From positions 44,475 to 108,474 of the IMG/VR virus record IMGVR_UViG_3300020477_001475: 64,000 nt of DNA; one strand, 5' to 3'. A program made the translations under genes and the position numbers. The notes beneath the pieces were generated by a model. That model saw only the letters and a list, made by a program, of their open reading frames with translations. It did not search any database and was not told the DNA's origin. The stretch is from a virus. Of this stretch, positions 7,717 through 61,448 are shown one piece after another (within the stretch, counting starts at the first letter, position 1; each line of letters starts with the position of its first letter).

Positions 7717-10700
7717 TTAATTACCTAAAATCATATTTACTATGCTTACTATGTCAGTTACATTAACTTGACCATCACCATTAACATCAGAACATTCTGT
7801 TAAATCATTTCCTACAGCACTTTCTAAACTTAAATCCACACCACTCAAAACAAAATTAACAATACTTACGACATCAGAAACATTAACATCACCAGTACCA
7901 TTTACATCACCCGGAATACATGACACAACATCTTCGACAGTACCACTGAATAAATATCCAAAAACATAATCTATTTTATCATTTAATTCTTGTTCTTTTT
8001 GTGTTATCCTTTCACTCTTTAACTTTACATTCTTCTTATTAGAAAATGTTTTAACTTTAGTGTGAAGACTTCCAATTTGATCAGAAAATGAAATTATATT
8101 TGATGTTCTGTATTTAGTTGGTATTATATTAGTAACAATAACTTCAACTACATCAGAACCTATCATTTCTTGTTCAGGTAATCCAAATGTTTCACCTAAA
8201 ACTTCCAACTTAAATTTAAGAACAATTTCATCATAACCTTGTGGTAATTCTGGTGCTTCCCATTCCAAATATGGAGATTCAGACCAAGGCAGTATATGTT
8301 CTGGTGTTCTTCTTTGTGGGTTAATAGGGTTATCTGTAATTGGATTTCCTATAAAAACCCATTCGTTACCATTCCAACGATACCATCTATATTTCAATGA
8401 TTCAGTACTACCATCACATATAGAATTAGCAGCTTGAAATGAATTACTACCATCTAACACAAATTTTCTCAATGGTTTAACCCAAAAATCTTCATTAACT
8501 ATTGCTACAACTGGTGGTATTATAGATGTAGAAACTTTAAACCCAGGTTCAAGTCTATGTACATACTCCCAACTACAACCATTTTGTTCACAATCTTCTT
8601 GATTTGTAATTGACAAATCACATTCACAAAATTCACTATACCATTGTCCTCCTGATGAATCTTGTTCCCATTCAAATACTCTATGGTCATCGTCAATAAT
8701 ATTATCCGTATATGCTTCTATTTTAAATAAGAAGTCAGTATCATAAGGTTCTTCTGAATTGTTATATGGATAACTACCACCATATCTTATCCATTCCCTA
8801 CAAGATAAATTTTGCCAATCATATATGGAATTATATCCAATAGAATATGAAGTATCATTTATATTAAAACCAGAATTAGTAATTCTTATATCAAAGGGTA
8901 TTTGATATAAATCATCAATACCTTGTACAGTACCAGGATTAGAAACTGTAAACCAACCATCTCTAGGAATTTCAAATAAGTGTCCATATTGGTCGTGTAC
9001 CCTTGATACAATTCTCAATCTAACATCAGTTATAGTTTGTGTACTATATACTTGTGCACGAAATTTTATAATATCATCTAAAATTACAGATGGAGTATCA
9101 TAATCACAATCACTTGGGTTATGATAATACCAATCAAAATCATAATTACCAGCATTAGGATCACTACAACCTGTACAAACATCCCAAAAATCTAAACAAC
9201 AATTACCCTCATCATACATACATTCTAATATATCACAAGAACAGTAATCACCACCAACATTAGAATTCCCACATTCATCTACACATGACCCTCTAAATGA
9301 ACAACAAATTTCATCAGTACCAGATGAAGGGAAAGTTTCATAAATATTACCACCACAATCTACCCACACAGATTCACCATCATAAATACCTGTTGGATAT
9401 GGATCAAAATTAATAGCTTCTTGATTTAAACATTCAGCACATACAGTATTATCACCATCACAAATATTACAAACATCAATTTCTGAATCACAGTAACATA
9501 ATGCTTCATTATCTTCATAATCATTAGTATCAATAAATTCGTAACCATCAGGACAACCACCATCTATGACAAGATTTTCATCACCTTCACATGCAATTAA
9601 AATTTGGTTATCTTGGAAATTACACCCAATACCATCACAATCATAATCCAAATAATAACATTTAGGTGTTATACAACAACCATCTAACCCGTGAGTTTCA
9701 GTACATTGAGTATTAGGTATACCTTCTTCCCAATTAGTTGTCCAAAAATTATAAATTACATTTTTATTACAATAATCGCCACTTCCACTTATCATACCAT
9801 TAGCAACACCAACACAACCAAAATCAACTGCATCTTGGTCAAGATTGTCAACACAACCCACAAATTCACAATCACCAGAATCTACTGTACAAGTTTCACA
9901 ATAATTGAAAGCTCCTTGATCTGTACAACCATAACAATAATCATCATCTTCAAAACCATTTGGAACACAACCACAATGTTCAGTGAGATATTCTTGATTT
10001 GTACAACAACATTCACAATGTTCTTCACCATCTTGATGCCCTAAATGATTTTGACATTCACAAGGACCATCACCATTACAGATACCACATTCATCTTCTA
10101 ATGCACTACCATTACATGAACCTTCACAATCAAAATAATTTTCTTCACAATCACAATATTCATCCGCTTCACCACAATCTTCTGTAGTAGGGTATTCAGT
10201 ACATTCTTCAAATCCTGGACACCAATATTGTAAATCGTCACAACATCCTATACCATCACCATCTGAATCATAATAACGAATATTTTCATAATATGGATTA
10301 CACAAATCTGGGTTGTGATGTACTCCATCTAAATCTTCAGCACAATCTACTACATTAACTTCATCACAATTATAATTACCATTATATATACCTTTAGCTT
10401 TAGGATTCAAACTACTAATATGATGGACATGTTCCTCATATAAAACTTCATAATCACCAAAAGTTGGATTATCTATACCTGAAATAGCTGGACAAGGACA
10501 TTTATCTATACCTTCAGGACAATCTACACCATTAACACCATCGTCACAATAAAATAAACATCCAGAAAAGATACAACAACAATTCTCATATTCACAATCA
10601 GGACATTGAGCACCAGCATTATCTGCACCAGAATCTTCATCACATTCATATGTAAGATCACATTGTAAATCGAACAAATCACTTCCATCTAGATAACAGT

Positions 10701-11301
10701 CCCAATTCGGATTAACAATATCTCCAGGATACTCCCAATTTTCAGTACAAGGATTTGCCATTAGCATTCCAATTGAATTACCAGAAATATCTGAACACAT
10801 ATCACCAAATACATCTGTATTACAAGAACAATGACCCCAAAGATTTGGATCAACAGTTTCATCTTCCCATACATAAAAATAAGCATCATGGGATAGACCA
10901 TCATTACCATCGGTGTTATACCAACAACCATATGGATGTGAGTTACCATTGCTATCATTACAAGCACCACCTTCAAATGCATTTAGTACTGGTACTGCTG
11001 TCAAATTAACACAAGGCCATTCACAAGTTTCTAATGTATCTTCTATATTTCCAGGAGTTGTTGTTTCTACTGCAATAGGTGATGTTACATTTTTAGAAGC
11101 TTCTATTGCATCTTGAAATTTTTGTATATTAATCCGTTTTTGAATTTCTGGTTTTAATTTAGGGTTTGTTGTAATTAAAACTTTATCCTTTTCTTTTTGG
11201 GATAATTTAGTCTTTTGTTTTGGTGGAGTTTTAGGTTTAGTTGATTTCTTTGACTTGTCAACATCCACTATACCCACATTAATTTCAAAATTACCACTCA
11301 T
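7717..11301 (-). CDS. Cys-rich repeat protein with somatomedin-B-like, PKD-like and C-terminal dockerin domains
   Basis: GCTDQGAFNY repeat, YYDSDGDGIGC, SMB-like SCVDEC..CSCDILEC..NCCLDFWDVC, PKD-like VLDGSNSF..LKYRW..LKFKLEV, duplicated dockerin GDVNGTGDVNVSDVVSIVNFVL / SDVNGDGQVNVTDIVSIVNMIL. Confidence 0.8.
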   Translation of the reverse strand: MSGNFEINVGIVDVDKSKKSTKPKTPPKQKTKLSQKEKDKVLITTNPKLKPEIQKRINIQKFQDAIEASKNVTSPIAVETTTPGNIEDTLETCEWPCVNLTAVPVLNAFEGGACNDSNGNSHPYGCWYNTDGNDGLSHDAYFYVWEDETVDPNLWGHCSCNTDVFGDMCSDISGNSIGMLMANPCTENWEYPGDIVNPNWDCYLDGSDLFDLQCDLTYECDEDSGADNAGAQCPDCEYENCCCIFSGCLFYCDDGVNGVDCPEGIDKCPCPAISGIDNPTFGDYEVLYEEHVHHISSLNPKAKGIYNGNYNCDEVNVVDCAEDLDGVHHNPDLCNPYYENIRYYDSDGDGIGCCDDLQYWCPGFEECTEYPTTEDCGEADEYCDCEENYFDCEGSCNGSALEDECGICNGDGPCECQNHLGHQDGEEHCECCCTNQEYLTEHCGCVPNGFEDDDYCYGCTDQGAFNYCETCTVDSGDCEFVGCVDNLDQDAVDFGCVGVANGMISGSGDYCNKNVIYNFWTTNWEEGIPNTQCTETHGLDGCCITPKCYYLDYDCDGIGCNFQDNQILIACEGDENLVIDGGCPDGYEFIDTNDYEDNEALCYCDSEIDVCNICDGDNTVCAECLNQEAINFDPYPTGIYDGESVWVDCGGNIYETFPSSGTDEICCSFRGSCVDECGNSNVGGDYCSCDILECMYDEGNCCLDFWDVCTGCSDPNAGNYDFDWYYHNPSDCDYDTPSVILDDIIKFRAQVYSTQTITDVRLRIVSRVHDQYGHLFEIPRDGWFTVSNPGTVQGIDDLYQIPFDIRITNSGFNINDTSYSIGYNSIYDWQNLSCREWIRYGGSYPYNNSEEPYDTDFLFKIEAYTDNIIDDDHRVFEWEQDSSGGQWYSEFCECDLSITNQEDCEQNGCSWEYVHRLEPGFKVSTSIIPPVVAIVNEDFWVKPLRKFVLDGSNSFQAANSICDGSTESLKYRWYRWNGNEWVFIGNPITDNPINPQRRTPEHILPWSESPYLEWEAPELPQGYDEIVLKFKLEVLGETFGLPEQEMIGSDVVEVIVTNIIPTKYRTSNIISFSDQIGSLHTKVKTFSNKKNVKLKSERITQKEQELNDKIDYVFGYLFSGTVEDVVSCIPGDVNGTGDVNVSDVVSIVNFVLSGVDLSLESAVGNDLTECSDVNGDGQVNVTDIVSIVNMILGN

Positions 11302-11304
11302 AAC

Positions 11305-12027
11305 TTAATTTTCCAACGAATAATCATTTGGATAATTGATTATTATTCTATTATGATTTTCTGATTCAGGTGGACAATCCAAATAATCGTGACAACAATT
11401 ATAATTATTCTTACATAATGAATTACAATAACAAGTAGCACCACTTGTAATTGGTGTATAAGTTCCACAACTTTCTACACAAGTATTACCATCATCATAA
11501 CCATTAAAATTATTAAAACCTGGAGTTATCCAAAAAGTTTCGGGTGTATCTTTGTAAATCCAATCACCACCATAAACATCATTTCCTCCCATTCCATCAA
11601 CAATCCGTTTCCAAACTGTATCAACTCCATTATCTTGGGAACTAAATTCATAATTAACAAAATTTATTTCTACATCATCACTGTCATTCAATGATATCCA
11701 GTCACTTGGATCACTTCCCCAACTGTAATCACAACCAATATGCCCATTACAATTGTCATAAGGTAAAAATATAATTTTATACCCACCCTTTTTTATAATA
11801 TAATCATCTAAAATAAGAGGATTTGGAAATGTAGATGCATTTAATACCCAACCACCCAATTGTATATTATAATTACTTCTATTATAAAGTTCAACATATC
11901 TATTCTGGGTTTCTTGTAAATCTGGAAGAATTTCTGATCCATAGTAAAATTCTGTAAGTGAAAAGTCTACATCACCACCCATCCAATTATATATTTCGTT
12001 TACAACTACATCACCTAAATTAGCCAT
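11305..12027 (-). CDS. Lamin-tail-domain protein with C-terminal somatomedin-B-like domain
   Basis: VVVNEIY..YVELYNRS..IQLGGWVL (LTD); SCG..CYCNSLCKNNYNCCHDYLDC (SMB Cys pattern). Confidence 0.7.
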   Translation of the reverse strand: MANLGDVVVNEIYNWMGGDVDFSLTEFYYGSEILPDLQETQNRYVELYNRSNYNIQLGGWVLNASTFPNPLILDDYIIKKGGYKIIFLPYDNCNGHIGCDYSWGSDPSDWISLNDSDDVEINFVNYEFSSQDNGVDTVWKRIVDGMGGNDVYGGDWIYKDTPETFWITPGFNNFNGYDDGNTCVESCGTYTPITSGATCYCNSLCKNNYNCCHDYLDCPPESENHNRIIINYPNDYSLEN

Positions 12028-33780: not shown

Positions 33781-34413
33781 CTATAAACCACCTACTATTT
33801 CAGAGTAAAAATTATTTTGTTTTTCTTGTTTATTTATATCTTTAGGATGATATATTGAAAATTCTTCTTGTGCTGGTAACTCTGTATATTCTTCGAAGCC
33901 CACCAACATTTCATGAACTGGTCTTTCCCATCTGATATTTGGTCTGTTTTTCCATATTCTACCTTGCCAATCAGGAAAATTTATCCAACCACTACCATTA
34001 ACATGCCATTTCCAATGATTTATATGTTCATCAGTCAACCCATCTACAGTATTAATTCTGGGTACCCAATATAAATCTATCGTAGGATTAATTTTCAATA
34101 TTGATTTTATATTTGTTATTAATTGTTTATGTGGCATTTCATCTGCATCTATATTGAAAATATAATCACCCGAACACATACGAGTCAAGTGATTTTTTTG
34201 TCCAGCGTAATCTTTTAACAAATGTCTTTGCTCAAATTTAATTTCATGAATAGAACACATAGTATCAAGAATTTCTTTTGTCTTTTCATTATCTGAATAA
34301 TCATCTAGAATTACAATTTCATCTTCTTCATCTTTATGTTTAACAAGAAACTCTATTAGTTTTAATAGAGAATCAGTTTCGTTGTGTGTTAATATACTAT
34401 AACTAATTTTCAT
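33781..34413 (-). CDS. Glycosyltransferase family 2
   Basis: THNE, LDDYS, IDADE, PDWQGR, VHE. Confidence 0.85.
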   Translation of the reverse strand: MKISYSILTHNETDSLLKLIEFLVKHKDEEDEIVILDDYSDNEKTKEILDTMCSIHEIKFEQRHLLKDYAGQKNHLTRMCSGDYIFNIDADEMPHKQLITNIKSILKINPTIDLYWVPRINTVDGLTDEHINHWKWHVNGSGWINFPDWQGRIWKNRPNIRWERPVHEMLVGFEEYTELPAQEEFSIYHPKDINKQEKQNNFYSEIVGGL

Positions 34414-41843: not shown

Positions 41844-41991
41844 CTGGAGCCGTAGGAGTCGAACCTACACGAAGAAGTTAGCCTTAGTTCAAGTGTGCAC
41901 CTAAGTAGTGGTCAACCCATTAAACCATGTTTATCCTTTTATCTTCACCCCCGAGACAAGAGGGCGTGTCTGCCAATTCCACCAGACTCCA
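41844..41991 (-). tRNA. Atypical tRNA-like RNA (148 nt), GUC triplet in the anticodon loop, 66-nt structured insertion in the variable arm
   Basis: Acceptor TGGAGTC/GGCTCCA+G; class II-type D arm GTG-GAATTGGCAGA-CAC; CCCTC-TTGTCTC-GGGGG; GAAGA/TCTTC V stem; T arm GTAGG-TTCGACT-CCTAC; no encoded CCA. Confidence 0.75.
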
Positions 41992-53081: not shown

Positions 53082-53336
53082 TTATGTGGGAATATTTTCT
53101 TGAGGTTGTATAGGATAAACAAATTGACATTGTGAACCACATACATTTATATTTCTACCCATCAAACAACACATAGAAATTGACAAATCGTTTATTGTTA
53201 TTTCACCATCACCATCATAGTCATTGAATTTAACACAATGTGAAGAATTACATATATCAATACCTGATTGTGCAACATTACAGTCTCCACCACAACCACC
53301 ATAAAACCACATTAAAGCTTCACTATAAGTTGACAT
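53082..53336 (-). CDS. Small Cys-rich protein with a single dockerin/EF-hand-like loop
   Basis: DYDGDGEITINDL. Confidence 0.55.
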   Translation of the reverse strand: MSTYSEALMWFYGGCGGDCNVAQSGIDICNSSHCVKFNDYDGDGEITINDLSISMCCLMGRNINVCGSQCQFVYPIQPQENIPT

Positions 53337-54448
53337 TATTTTCTCCTCCCAGGCCTATACCCACCTTTTCTCTTTTTTATTCTTTTACCACCATTTCCTT
53401 TGTGTGCATTCATCCCAACATTAACACTTTGATTTAAATATTGTGAAATAGTCAATGGTGTTCTTTCTACCGGTACCTTTTTAGTACCCTTTCTTTTAGT
53501 AGTTACCACAGGGGGTATTGGCGTTTGTTGTGTTGTAAGTTGATTGATAATTTGATTACCTTGAGTTGTATTTGGTCCTAATATACTATTAACTAAATTA
53601 ACAATATCAACTACATTTACTGTTCCATCACTATTAACATCTGCATTTTGAAGTGCTTGACCAACTAAATTATTACTACCCAATACATGATTTACAATTT
53701 GAACTATATCTACAACATTTACAACACCGTCTAAATTTGTATCACCTACTAAACCTTCCACTACAAAATTTTGTTCATAATCAGGAGTGGGATATCCTGG
53801 TGATGCATTATTTGAAAAAGTTGTGGGTGTCCAACTATTAGGATTATATGGATCAGTCAATGATATGGATTTAGTACCTCCCACATTAGTATTCCCATCA
53901 TCCGTATATTGAACATAAGTATGTGCATTAGTATAGTTACCTGTCCACTTACCTGTTGTATTATTAGTTGGTGGAGAAATATTTGATGGAAACAGAGCAA
54001 TTAAATCACAATCCCCATTTTGATGTGAGCAATCATAATCACCACAACCATGATTAGAAGTATTAGCTGGTTGATTAGAATCATTATACCCCATAACATA
54101 ACAAGGAGGATCTGGATTAGGGAAATTATTAATATTTTTATCATATATATCAGTACAATTCAAACCACCACATGGAGATGGAGATTCATATACAACTAAA
54201 AATTCTCCAGGTGGTAATATACAATCATTATTACAATAATTGGCAGTACCTGTCCAACCACCTTGACCTTGATAACATAAATCAAAATCAATCCATTTAT
54301 CGTCTTCATATCCACAATCAGTATTCCCAGGATGTCCATTATAACCAACAAACTTCCAACCACTTAAAGGTACTGGTGTATTACCAGCATTAAATATTTC
54401 AATCCATTCTGGTTCTGATTTTGATGATATTTCTGTTATTACAATCAT
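53336..54448 (-). CDS. Lamin-tail domain plus dockerin protein with basic C-terminal tail
   Basis: IVITEI..EWIEIFNAG..LSGWKF..LPPGEFLVV (LTD); GDTNLDGVVNVVDIVQIVNHVL / ADVNSDGTVNVVDIVNLVNSIL. Confidence 0.8.
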   Translation of the reverse strand: MIVITEISSKSEPEWIEIFNAGNTPVPLSGWKFVGYNGHPGNTDCGYEDDKWIDFDLCYQGQGGWTGTANYCNNDCILPPGEFLVVYESPSPCGGLNCTDIYDKNINNFPNPDPPCYVMGYNDSNQPANTSNHGCGDYDCSHQNGDCDLIALFPSNISPPTNNTTGKWTGNYTNAHTYVQYTDDGNTNVGGTKSISLTDPYNPNSWTPTTFSNNASPGYPTPDYEQNFVVEGLVGDTNLDGVVNVVDIVQIVNHVLGSNNLVGQALQNADVNSDGTVNVVDIVNLVNSILGPNTTQGNQIINQLTTQQTPIPPVVTTKRKGTKKVPVERTPLTISQYLNQSVNVGMNAHKGNGGKRIKKRKGGYRPGRRK

Positions 54449-59795: not shown

Positions 59796-59949
59796 CTTTT
59801 ATATCAGCTGTAAAGTATGAATTTATTTTTTTAACTGGAAGTTTTCCTAATTTATCAAATACAATATTTCCATCTTCATCTGTGACATAATCACTTGGTT
59901 TAGTTCCAGCTAATCCATACTTGTCCTGTAATTCCATTCCTATATTCAT
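59761..59949 (-). CDS. Hypothetical protein
   Basis: ATGA-coupled to the upstream gene. Confidence 0.45.
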   Translation of the reverse strand: MNIGMELQDKYGLAGTKPSDYVTDEDGNIVFDKLGKLPVKKINSYFTADIKDDGEKDNGKTS

Positions 59950-61448
59950 TCAGTACTCTCCCAATTATAATTCAATACGTCTAATCTATTTCTAACATCT
60001 AATTGTGGAAAGTTTTCTTCCAACCATTCAACTGATTCAGTGAATGTCGTTCCAAGTATCTGACCTACAACTTGTATTATATCTAAAATATTTAAAATAC
60101 CATCATTGTTTATATCACTAACTAAAAATTGTAAATCAGTTGGTTGGTTTACATTCAACACAAAATTAACTATTTGAACCACATCAACTATATTAATCTC
60201 TCCATCAAAGTTAACATCACCATATAGAATTGATTGAACATCTATACAATCAGGTGTATTACTTTCTATTTCATCACCATTTGTATCTGATATAACTATA
60301 TCTGATGCACAAACTTCAACATCTTCATAAGTCGGTGTAAAATTAATTATCGTTAATGTACCACTACCCGCAGGAATCACACTACCATCAAATGAAAATC
60401 CTAATACAACACCTTGTTCACTTGTAGATACCGTAAAATCATAATTTTCAGCTTCACCACCGCTAGCACCCAACACATCAATTAAATCAGGGGTATCTGT
60501 TAGAGTGAATTGAAATCCCGCAACATCAATATTTGATTCATAATTCACCAATAAATAATCAGTTCCTGGATATTCAAATGTTAAATTTATATAATCACTT
60601 TCTTCTTCTTCAGGTTCACCAATGTAACCAAAAAACCAATCAAGTCTAGACCAGACTTTTGAGTATACTCCCGGATACCCAGCATCAGCTCAACCATATC
60701 CCCAACTGACTATACCGATAAGTTCATATTCACCATCTGAATTAGTCATAATAAGTGGTCCACCACTATCTCCTTGACAAGAATCTTCACCACCATTGTT
60801 ATCACCTGCACATATCATATTATTTGTTATTTCATTACTAATGTAACCACAATCATCATCAATAGGTACATCCACTTCTAATAATACATCAGAACCCCAG
60901 CCACCAGAATAGGTTGCACCCCAACCCATAACTGTTGATATAATTGGTTCTTCATGATGTGATTCATCTGTAACTAATTGTATAGGTTCAAATGTAGTAA
61001 CTGGTTGTGTTAAATGTAATAGAGCATAATCATTATCCAATGACCAACCACTATAATTTGGATGAACTATAATTTGGTCTACATTTCTTGTAACAGCACC
61101 ACTTGTTCCATTCACATTATGCAATCCAACCTTTACTTGTAATCCACCAGGAGATTCTCCTTCTACACAATGTGCGGCTGTTACAACCCAATCTTCTCTA
61201 ACAAGTGAACCACCACAAAAGTGCCCCCAACCATTTCCTTGTAATGAAACCATAAATGGATATTTACAATCCGGACATTCAGGATCAACTTCCTCTCCCC
61301 CAACTATAAATGGTTCTGGCAAATCACCATGATTAGGCATTTCATTTTGAGTTGAATATGTTTCTAAATAACTATTTGTTATCGGGATTGAATTATCACT
61401 CTGGCACCCTAAAACCATTAATAACATTATCAAAAATAATTTCTTCAT
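59946..61448 (-). CDS. Lipoprotein trypsin-like serine protease with cohesin-like and dockerin domains, 500 aa if the in-frame UGA (60690-60692) is read as selenocysteine
   Basis: Lipobox LVLGC; IVGG, TAAHC, DYALL, DSCQGDSGGP, SWGYG-UGA-ADAGYPGVY continuing without a stop into the 59946-60551 ORF. Confidence 0.8.
60642..60689 (-). promoter_or_regulatory. Candidate bacterial SECIS element(s) directly 3' of the UGA
   Basis: Hairpins TGGGTAT-CCGGGAGT-ATACTCA (60660-60681) and AAGTCT-GGTCT-AGACTT (60642-60658). Confidence 0.55.

Follow-up and report, generated by a model that had tools for sequence, protein, structure and literature searches.

An in-frame UGA, probably a selenocysteine codon, in a trypsin-like protease gene of an uncultured T4-like marine phage lineage

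The window, a stretch of 64,000 nucleotides (nt), comprises bases 44475 to 108474 of the 108,474-bp IMG/VR virus record IMGVR_UViG_3300020477_001475 and carries on its minus strand a trypsin-like serine protease gene in which the codon of a conserved structural cysteine, Cys220 in chymotrypsinogen numbering, is UGA. Comparison of this gene with its relatives indicates that the UGA, codon 253 of the reading frame, is probably read as selenocysteine (Sec), at this site specifically and by means of the SelB system of the host, which supports the interpretation proposed in a previous sequence-only reading of the window. The UGA is real, old, and recurrent, and it exchanges with Cys codons only. 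The frame downstream of it is under purifying selection equal to that of the alleles encoding Cys, and an RNA hairpin after the UGA is maintained in UGA alleles only. All the members of the family with flanking sequence belong to a single uncultured T4-like lineage of marine phages. Since the UGA is exchanged with Cys codons only, the inserted residue must act like Cys; its identity as Sec, the Se-S bond, and any benefit resulting from that bond are inferred.

In the mechanism that we propose, the ribosome would decode UGA253 as Sec during infection, and the hairpin starting 12 nt after the UGA would function as a bacterial-type Sec insertion sequence (SECIS) recruiting host SelB together with Sec-tRNA(Sec). 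Translation would then proceed through the last strands of the S1 protease fold, a cohesin module, and a dockerin. This would yield a lipoprotein zymogen that is exported and in which Sec220, next to the S1 pocket, is paired with Cys191, a selenylsulfide thus taking the place of the canonical disulfide.

A single frame interrupted by one TGA

The minus strand from 61448 to 59946 is a single frame of 500 codons, interrupted solely by the TGA at 60692 to 60690. It had been called as two open reading frames (ORFs), 60690 to 61448 and 59946 to 60551, which lie in one frame, with the TGA and 46 sense codons between them. Around the site the sequence reads SWGYG-TGA-ADAGYPGVYSKV. At the stop frequency of this strand (0.083 per codon), 125 codons would stay open by chance with a probability of about 2e−5. 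The Pfam trypsin profile (PF00089) matches residues 57 to 271 of the read-through protein (E = 5e−60; 203 bits against a cut-off of 20.6), corresponding to profile positions 6 to 219 of 220, and the match therefore runs across the TGA. In the alignment with salmon trypsin (1utj; E = 4e−46), the TGA sits on the Cys of SWGYGCA, which is Cys220. The same alignment equates D222, C224, and S228 of the DSCQGDSGGP motif with Asp189, Cys191, and Ser195, while H93 and D140 correspond to His57 and Asp102, and H93, D140, S228, and D222 are all invariant in 26 relatives. Among 120 called homologues, 117 have Cys in column 220; the window gene has UGA there and retains the partner Cys191 (C224). The "W" shown in this column for two homologues (P0013 and P0015) is probably a translation-table-4 call of TGA, P0013 being 98.6% identical to a TGA-bearing locus (L044).

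The putative N-terminal signal peptide would end in a lipobox, …MVLG-C15, read from the sequence, and C15 is invariant in the 26 relatives. In an AlphaFold2 model built from a shallow alignment, the protease part is poor, with a predicted local distance difference test score (pLDDT) below 50 over residues 154 to 283, and the C-terminal half is good. A fold search with this model matched residues 60 to 279 to S1 proteases and residues 285 to 409 to many type I cohesins (Z = 10.3 to 11.7; 120 to 132 residues aligned; for those with Z of 11 to 11.7, root mean square deviation [rmsd] of 2.6 to 3.0 Å over 120 to 129 residues), the pLDDT of the cohesin part being about 55 to 80. The Pfam cohesin family gave no match to the read-through protein at E ≤ 0.01. 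The type I dockerin that follows was identified both by Pfam (PF00404; residues 409 to 464; E = 6e−8; 33.2 bits against a cut-off of 22.9) and by fold (residues 407 to 468 against 2ccl_B; Z = 12.4; rmsd of 1.3 Å; 62 of 62 residues). The cohesin-fold module is found in the window allele and a few relatives and is absent from most members of the family, whose tails have 125 or 126 amino acids (aa). The coordinates of these features are collected in Table 1.

Table 1. Features of the protease gene, in window coordinates
Feature	Position	Strand	Basis or remarks
Whole read-through gene	59946..61448	−	500 codons, then a TGA of its own as terminator (59946-59948); leader, S1 protease, cohesin fold, dockerin
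Putative signal peptide and lipobox	61404..61448	−	Sequence reading, C15 invariance
S1 trypsin-like protease domain, residues 48-279	60612..61307	−	Pfam, alignments, fold; U253 corresponds to position 220
Candidate Sec codon, in-frame UGA, codon 253, Cys220 column	60690..60692	−	Frame, 1utj alignment
Candidate SECIS mini-hairpin	60661..60680	−	Comparison of alleles, covariation
Cohesin-fold module, residues 285-409	60222..60596	−	Fold match
Type I dockerin, residues 407-468	60045..60230	−	PF00404 and fold match

The record has a GC content of 29.7% and a CheckV completeness of 55%. Within it, TGA terminates 22 of the 96 coding-strand frames of at least 100 codons, a count that includes the first half of the protease gene, and the protease gene itself also ends with TGA. 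TGA is thus an ordinary stop elsewhere in the record, which excludes a genome-wide reassignment of this codon. No further coding frame bridged by a TGA was found in the 108-kb record or in the phage loci compared with it, and a search for the W-U-P-S-C redoxin motif found none. The sequence-only reading had placed the two ORFs in a common frame, the TGA in the conserved Cys220 column, and TGA among the normal stops of the rest of the genome, and had taken the His/Asp/Ser triad and Asp189 to be intact; the frame check, the 1utj alignment, the terminator count, and the residues invariant in the relatives all agree with it. Its description of the product as a lipoprotein with trypsin, cohesin, and dockerin parts likewise accords with the architecture predicted from PF00089, PF00404, the cohesin fold match of the model, and the lipobox C15.

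UGA and Cys alleles in one phage lineage

To compare alleles, we scanned IMG/VR, JGI/ENA metagenomes, and GTDB genomes at the DNA level for the motif WGYG-x-A[DE]A.YPGVY, leaving the middle codon open, and defined the phage subfamily by the linker …WFF.YIGEPE that follows the motif. The counts of sequence contexts obtained from the metagenomes are samples rather than totals and are given as lower bounds. At least 165 distinct contexts were recovered. In the phage subfamily, at least 67 contexts, about two thirds of those sampled, carry TGA and at least 31 carry TGY (28 TGT and 3 TGC), whereas neither TGG nor any other codon occurs in the Cys220 column among the 165 contexts listed. The IMG/VR contigs alone give 17 TGA against 14 TGY. 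In the ESM Atlas, two clusters of shortened trypsins of 256 and 259 aa have 156 and 148 members, all of them labelled viral.

The frame after the TGA is preserved. Of the 51 TGA alleles whose downstream end lies on the contig, 50 keep 120 to 266 open codons. The exception (L109; Ga0080013_1017239) carries another in-frame TGA 10 codons beyond the first, at a codon that is AGA in its nearest relatives, and is perhaps a damaged copy or the result of a sequencing error. The approximately 27 codons right after the UGA encode the last strands and the helix of the S1 fold and are in frame and conserved in all the TGA alleles. The pairwise ratio of nonsynonymous to synonymous substitution rates (dN/dS) over codons +14 to +118 is 0.34 for TGA alleles and 0.35 for Cys alleles; upstream of the site, the values are 0.24 and 0.17, respectively. 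The gene therefore shows what is looked for in bacterial selenoproteins, an in-frame UGA at the Cys of homologues followed by a conserved downstream frame.

The sequence-only reading had named an assembly error and an isolated nonsense mutation with relaxed selection downstream as the outcomes that would undo it. Neither fits what was found, since the TGA is kept in independent public assemblies and is shared by the many relatives counted above, whose downstream frames are intact. Contigs from three DNA runs (two studies) and one contig from an RNA library span the site, with no variant listed there. That an error of assembly or sequencing, or a recent nonsense mutation producing a pseudogene, underlies the TGA is accordingly barely credible: a single base separates TGA from TGT and TGC, and L109 does have its second in-frame TGA, but the TGA contexts come from many projects, Sanger reads included, the downstream frames are intact with a dN/dS of 0.34, and the TGA persists across deep phage divergence. 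The RNA-library contig (955 nt; poly(A) metatranscriptome run X20) covers window positions 60317 to 61251 at about 90% identity and spans the UGA. It is not evidence of expression and may represent carried-over DNA.

The record encodes a baseplate wedge protein, PhoH, a T4-type DNA polymerase, a clamp loader, a dUTPase, a Mom-like protein, and many glycosyltransferases. Its DNA polymerase has 47% identity to that of the Microcystis phage Mel-JY01 and about 32% to those of T4-like cyanophages. At about 55 further loci, the protease gene adjoins phage genes for DNA polymerase, clamp loader, and nuclease. The TGA and TGY forms adjoin the same SNase-like endonuclease (75 to 90% identity) and the same DNA polymerase (67 to 76% identity), and this sharing of neighbors by both types of alleles places them in one phage lineage. 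TGA itself extends over deep phage divergence, the DNA polymerases having 67 to 77% identity to the window enzyme. The protease was not found in cultured phages in the collection searched.

The history of the switch was examined on two trees. In a DNA polymerase tree of 23 contigs, TGA occurs in most of the deep clades and TGY mainly in one derived clade, and three changes suffice to explain the distribution. In the protease tree, the phage branches at the base carry TGY, followed by a large clade that is mostly TGA, with at least four supported switches, or nine by parsimony. Repeated interchange of Sec and Cys is described for selenoprotein families (PMC1794560). In the phage lineage, such repeated switching amounts to a natural experiment on when Sec pays off.

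The hairpin and the probable decoding of the UGA

Within the subfamily, 64 TGA alleles were set against 31 Cys alleles, with positions counted from the U of the UGA. The hairpin has arms at +12 to +17 and +26 to +31 and a loop CCRGGNGU, its 6-bp stem beginning 12 nt after the U of the UGA. The stem is reduced to 5 bp in CAG-type alleles, and the loop has 8 nt, or 5 nt if the invariant C at +18 and G at +24 pair. The window allele, a U-A variant, has the 5′ arm GGGUAU (60680-60675), the loop CCGGGAGU (60674-60667), and the 3′ arm AUACUC (60666-60661). The wobble sites +14, +17, +20, +26, and +29 carry G or C in 78 to 94% of the TGA alleles; in the Cys alleles, the corresponding values are 3 to 16% at four of these sites and 52% at +26 (Fisher test; P = 1e−5 to 1e−17). 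The GC content at third positions of codons +4 to +9 is 0.83 in TGA alleles against 0.17 in Cys alleles, while in the remainder of the gene it is 0.1 to 0.3 in both.

Two pairs of the stem covary among the 64 TGA alleles, and both lie entirely at synonymous sites. The pair (+14,+29) is G-C in 59 alleles, A-U in 4, and A.C in 1, and the pair (+17,+26) is C-G in 58, U-A in 5, and U.G in 1 (Fisher test; P = 8e−6 and 8e−7, respectively, uncorrected for relatedness). The variant pairs occupy separate places on the protease and polymerase trees. In the hairpin alignment, 89% of the cells are paired, and none of 500 shuffles reached the observed covariation score. A hairpin restricted to the TGA alleles supports a site-specific recoding of the UGA. 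Single-sequence approaches were negative: the 81 nt after the UGA of the window fold no better than shuffled sequences (z = −0.22), and ARAGORN and Rfam (at gathering thresholds) returned nothing in the window. The hairpin signal thus arises from the comparison of alleles only.

Two other hairpins were considered and rejected. One, further downstream (AGUCU…AGACU, with its loop about 38 nt after the UGA), needs the codons of KVWSRLD, which are found in few TGA alleles; most TGA alleles have KIHSRLD. The other (GCUC/GGGC), which is the minimum free energy (MFE) structure of CAG-type alleles, is unsupported in alleles of the GGG type or with CCA loops. The immediate context of the codon also differs between the two sets of alleles. 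The preceding codon is GGU in 64 of 64 TGA alleles against 14 of 31 Cys alleles (window 60693-60695), and GCG is used for the Ala that follows in 36 of 64 against 1 of 31 (window 60687-60689).

In Escherichia coli, it is enough to have a minimal stem-loop some 11 nt beyond the UGA, and the position of the phage hairpin agrees with this. The consensus model of the bacterial SECIS (bSECIS) has an upper stem of 4 to 16 bp, an apical loop of 3 to 9 nt, a spacing of 16 to 37 nt between UGA and loop, and an MFE of −7.5 kcal/mol or lower (PMC13188914). Both the stem and the loop of the phage hairpin are within these sizes. A G in the first two loop positions, as the model asks, is present only in the CCG-type loops (50 of 64), and only if the inner C-G pair forms.

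Some of the results weigh against a decoding as Sec. The spacing of the hairpin, 15 nt with the 8-nt loop or 16 nt with the 5-nt loop, is at the lower edge of the bSECIS range, and its MFE (−2.4 to −6.5 kcal/mol over nt +9 to +39) falls short of the bSECIS value, which may refer to a different folding window. The CCA-type loops (14 of 64), which have C and A first, lack the G that the bSECIS rule demands in the first two loop positions (PMC13188914). In five phage records of the lineage, which are fragments 8 to 63% complete, we did not find tRNA-Sec, selB, or selD. It would be atypical for an exported hydrolase to have Sec in a structural disulfide, as most selenoproteins are redox enzymes. 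The use of host SelB, SelA, SelD, and tRNA(Sec) by the phage is a second point that we infer, and the assignment of the protease as a selenoprotein comes from sequence comparison. In the sampled Flavobacteriales, to which the closest cellular relatives found by the motif scan belong, SelB scored above the cut-off in 0 of 301 genomes, and tRNA-Sec did so in none of 5 metagenome-assembled genomes (MAGs).

Read-through of the UGA without Sec would account for some of these points. In this reading, which we consider unlikely, the hairpin and the invariant GGU-UGA-G surroundings would favor decoding by a near-cognate tRNA for Cys or Trp, or by a suppressor tRNA whose gene lies in an unsequenced part of the phage genome. 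A Cys220 or Trp220 protein would then be made in lowered amounts, which may serve to throttle a toxic protease. The negative searches for Sec machinery in the phage fragments and in the sampled Flavobacteriales, the 55% completeness of the record, the partial fit of the hairpin to the bSECIS consensus, and the contrast in GGU usage before the codon, which suggests a wider context effect, speak in favor of this explanation. But the UGA is exchanged with TGT and TGC, and with neither TGG nor any other codon among the contexts listed; opal suppression of a general kind would extend to the 21 other TGA-ended frames of at least 100 codons; and the odd tRNA-like genes of the genome read GUC, UCC, and ACC rather than UCA, one of these units being present in a TGA-type as well as a TGT-type relative. 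Moreover, to our knowledge, SECIS elements are the only hairpins that stimulate read-through at such a spacing in bacteria.

A UGA acting as a true stop, which would leave a protease fragment of 252 aa and require the cohesin and dockerin to be made from an internal TTG start at 60551, is quite improbable. Gene callers and the ESM Atlas do treat the form of 252 to 259 aa as a protein, and the start-like TTG is indeed present 46 codons downstream of the UGA. A protease ending at residue 219 would, however, be deprived of part of the wall of its S1 pocket. The conserved end of the fold is encoded in frame right after the UGA in all the TGA alleles. The tail left for a separate product is just 125 aa in most relatives, and the TGA-specific hairpin would be left without explanation.

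Insertion of Sec by a host SelB system thus remains the reading that we prefer. In a further-reaching version of it, an abundant uncultured marine T4-like lineage would have long kept a Sec codon and its hairpin, infection being dependent on the Sec machinery of the host and on the selenium of the ocean. In the boldest form, which is a long shot, the phage itself would drive hairpin-dependent recoding of the UGA in a host lacking SelB (e.g., Flavobacteriales), by means of factors whose genes lie in the unsequenced half of the phage genome.

In the GTDB genomes, the DNA motif scan recovered Cys forms only, and a protein-based scan gave no matches. The closest cellular relatives by the motif scan are trypsin-domain proteins of marine Flavobacteriales, all with Cys and in regions of 26 to 31% GC. 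Eight of these, from Flavobacteriales/Bacteroidota MAGs and one single-amplified genome (L166, L168, L172, L181, L184, L186, L190, and L198), have 800 to 950 aa and show the motif SWGYGCAEAGYPGVY followed by a Cys-rich segment …FIDWIC…C.NE…C…. Those compared with the phage proteins (L166, L172, and L184) share with them this motif and an origin in low-GC marine genomes, but differ in their length, in their C-terminal continuation …RVSYFIDWIC…, in always having Cys, and in the long branch that sets them apart from the phage clade on the tree.

Low-GC marine bacteria that use Sec exist as candidate hosts: "Candidatus Actinomarina" is reported to have selA, selC, and selD universally, while Pelagibacter is reported to have no selC (bioRxiv 10.64898/2026.04.03.716425). 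We confirmed SelD genes of the Sec type in small low-GC genomes of Acidimicrobiia (L252-L261), which read …SHG[AS]G-UGA-ACKL…; this agrees with the preprint, which reports the SelD of Actinomarina to be itself a selenoprotein. The hairpin of these selD genes has 5 to 6 bp and, like the phage hairpin, starts 12 nt after the UGA; its loops differ from the phage loops. WhiB was not found in the phage records.

Known systems and other features of the record

The prediction of a selenoprotein in this family is not new. Zhang and Gladyshev (2008; PMC2398784, Table 4 and Dataset S2) counted a "trypsin-like serine protease" as one of seven new selenoprotein families in data from Global Ocean Sampling (GOS), with nine Sec and 128 Cys sequences, a predicted SECIS, and a "potential redox function." The sequence-only reading had pointed to Sec-containing trypsin-like proteins from marine metagenomes, and the nine GOS reads, in which SWGYG-U-AEA… is followed by a dockerin tail, bear this out. 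They share with the window gene the column SWGYG-U-A[DE]A.YPGVY, the …WFF.YIGEPE linker, a dockerin-type tail, and a predicted downstream SECIS, but the GOS family consists of unassigned reads treated as microbial, whereas the window gene is part of a 108-kb phage record. Beyond the GOS report, the present data add the UGA form as the majority, the covarying hairpin, and the identification of the Cys as the structural Cys220, partner of Cys191, and the window allele adds the cohesin-fold module. The family is listed without accession or organism in a 2022 review (PMC9312934), and a 2021 re-analysis of the GOS data reported that selenoprotein families contain few or no viral sequences (PMC9402790). 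We did not find the phage assignment, the UGA majority, or the covarying hairpin in the literature on the family, nor any report of a bacteriophage selenoprotein in the literature searched, in which selenoproteins are described for cells and a few eukaryotic viruses.

The phage gene resembles bacterial genes with a SelB-bound SECIS inside the ORF, such as E. coli fdhF, in having the UGA at a Cys position, a stem-loop about 11 to 12 nt after it, G residues in the loop, and a repeated interchange of Sec and Cys. The differences are that the phage hairpin is shorter and weaker than the consensus model asks, no Sec machinery was detected in the virus, and the residue is a structural Cys rather than a redox site. 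Among eukaryotic viruses, molluscum contagiosum and fowlpox viruses have selenoprotein homologues of glutathione peroxidase. These also exemplify a viral UGA/Sec gene relying on the Sec machinery of the host, but they are host-derived redox enzymes with a SECIS in the 3′ untranslated region, in contrast to the protease and the bacterial-type in-ORF hairpin of the phage. Viral selenoprotein genes are mentioned in general terms in PMC8310308.

If the UGA is indeed read as Sec, a selenoprotein family unassigned since 2008 would belong to a widespread lineage of marine phages, and hundreds of database entries would contain phage gene calls that wrongly end at this UGA. The range of hosts of these phages would be linked to bacteria that use Sec. 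The replacement of a structural disulfide Cys by Sec in an exported hydrolase would also represent an unusual selenoprotein chemistry. For the phage, the protease may serve in receptor removal, nutrient release, or the assembly of a cohesin-dockerin scaffold.

Among the proteins of three other minus-strand frames of the window (7717-11301, 53336-54448, and 11305-12027), two (1194 and 370 aa) contain or end in a type I dockerin, lamin-tail domains are found in two, and a somatomedin-B domain in one. Together with the cohesin fold of the protease, the dockerin proteins suggest a phage-encoded cohesin-dockerin assembly. A frame of 5119 codons crosses the start of the window.

The record also contains unusual tRNA-like genes. 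The one at window positions 41844 to 41991 (minus strand; 148 nt) has a 7-bp acceptor stem, a T arm, an anticodon loop with GUC, and an insert of about 79 nt at the position of the variable arm, and it was called by neither ARAGORN nor Rfam. Its anticodon is not UCA, and we saw no link between this gene and the UGA. Two tandem tRNA-like units of about 73 nt each, with anticodon loops UCC and ACC and no Rfam call, lie at about 33955 to 34118 of the record (minus strand). They differ from each other by compensatory changes in their stems, and one of them is kept at 81 to 87% in two relatives, G708 of the TGT type and G008 of the TGA type.

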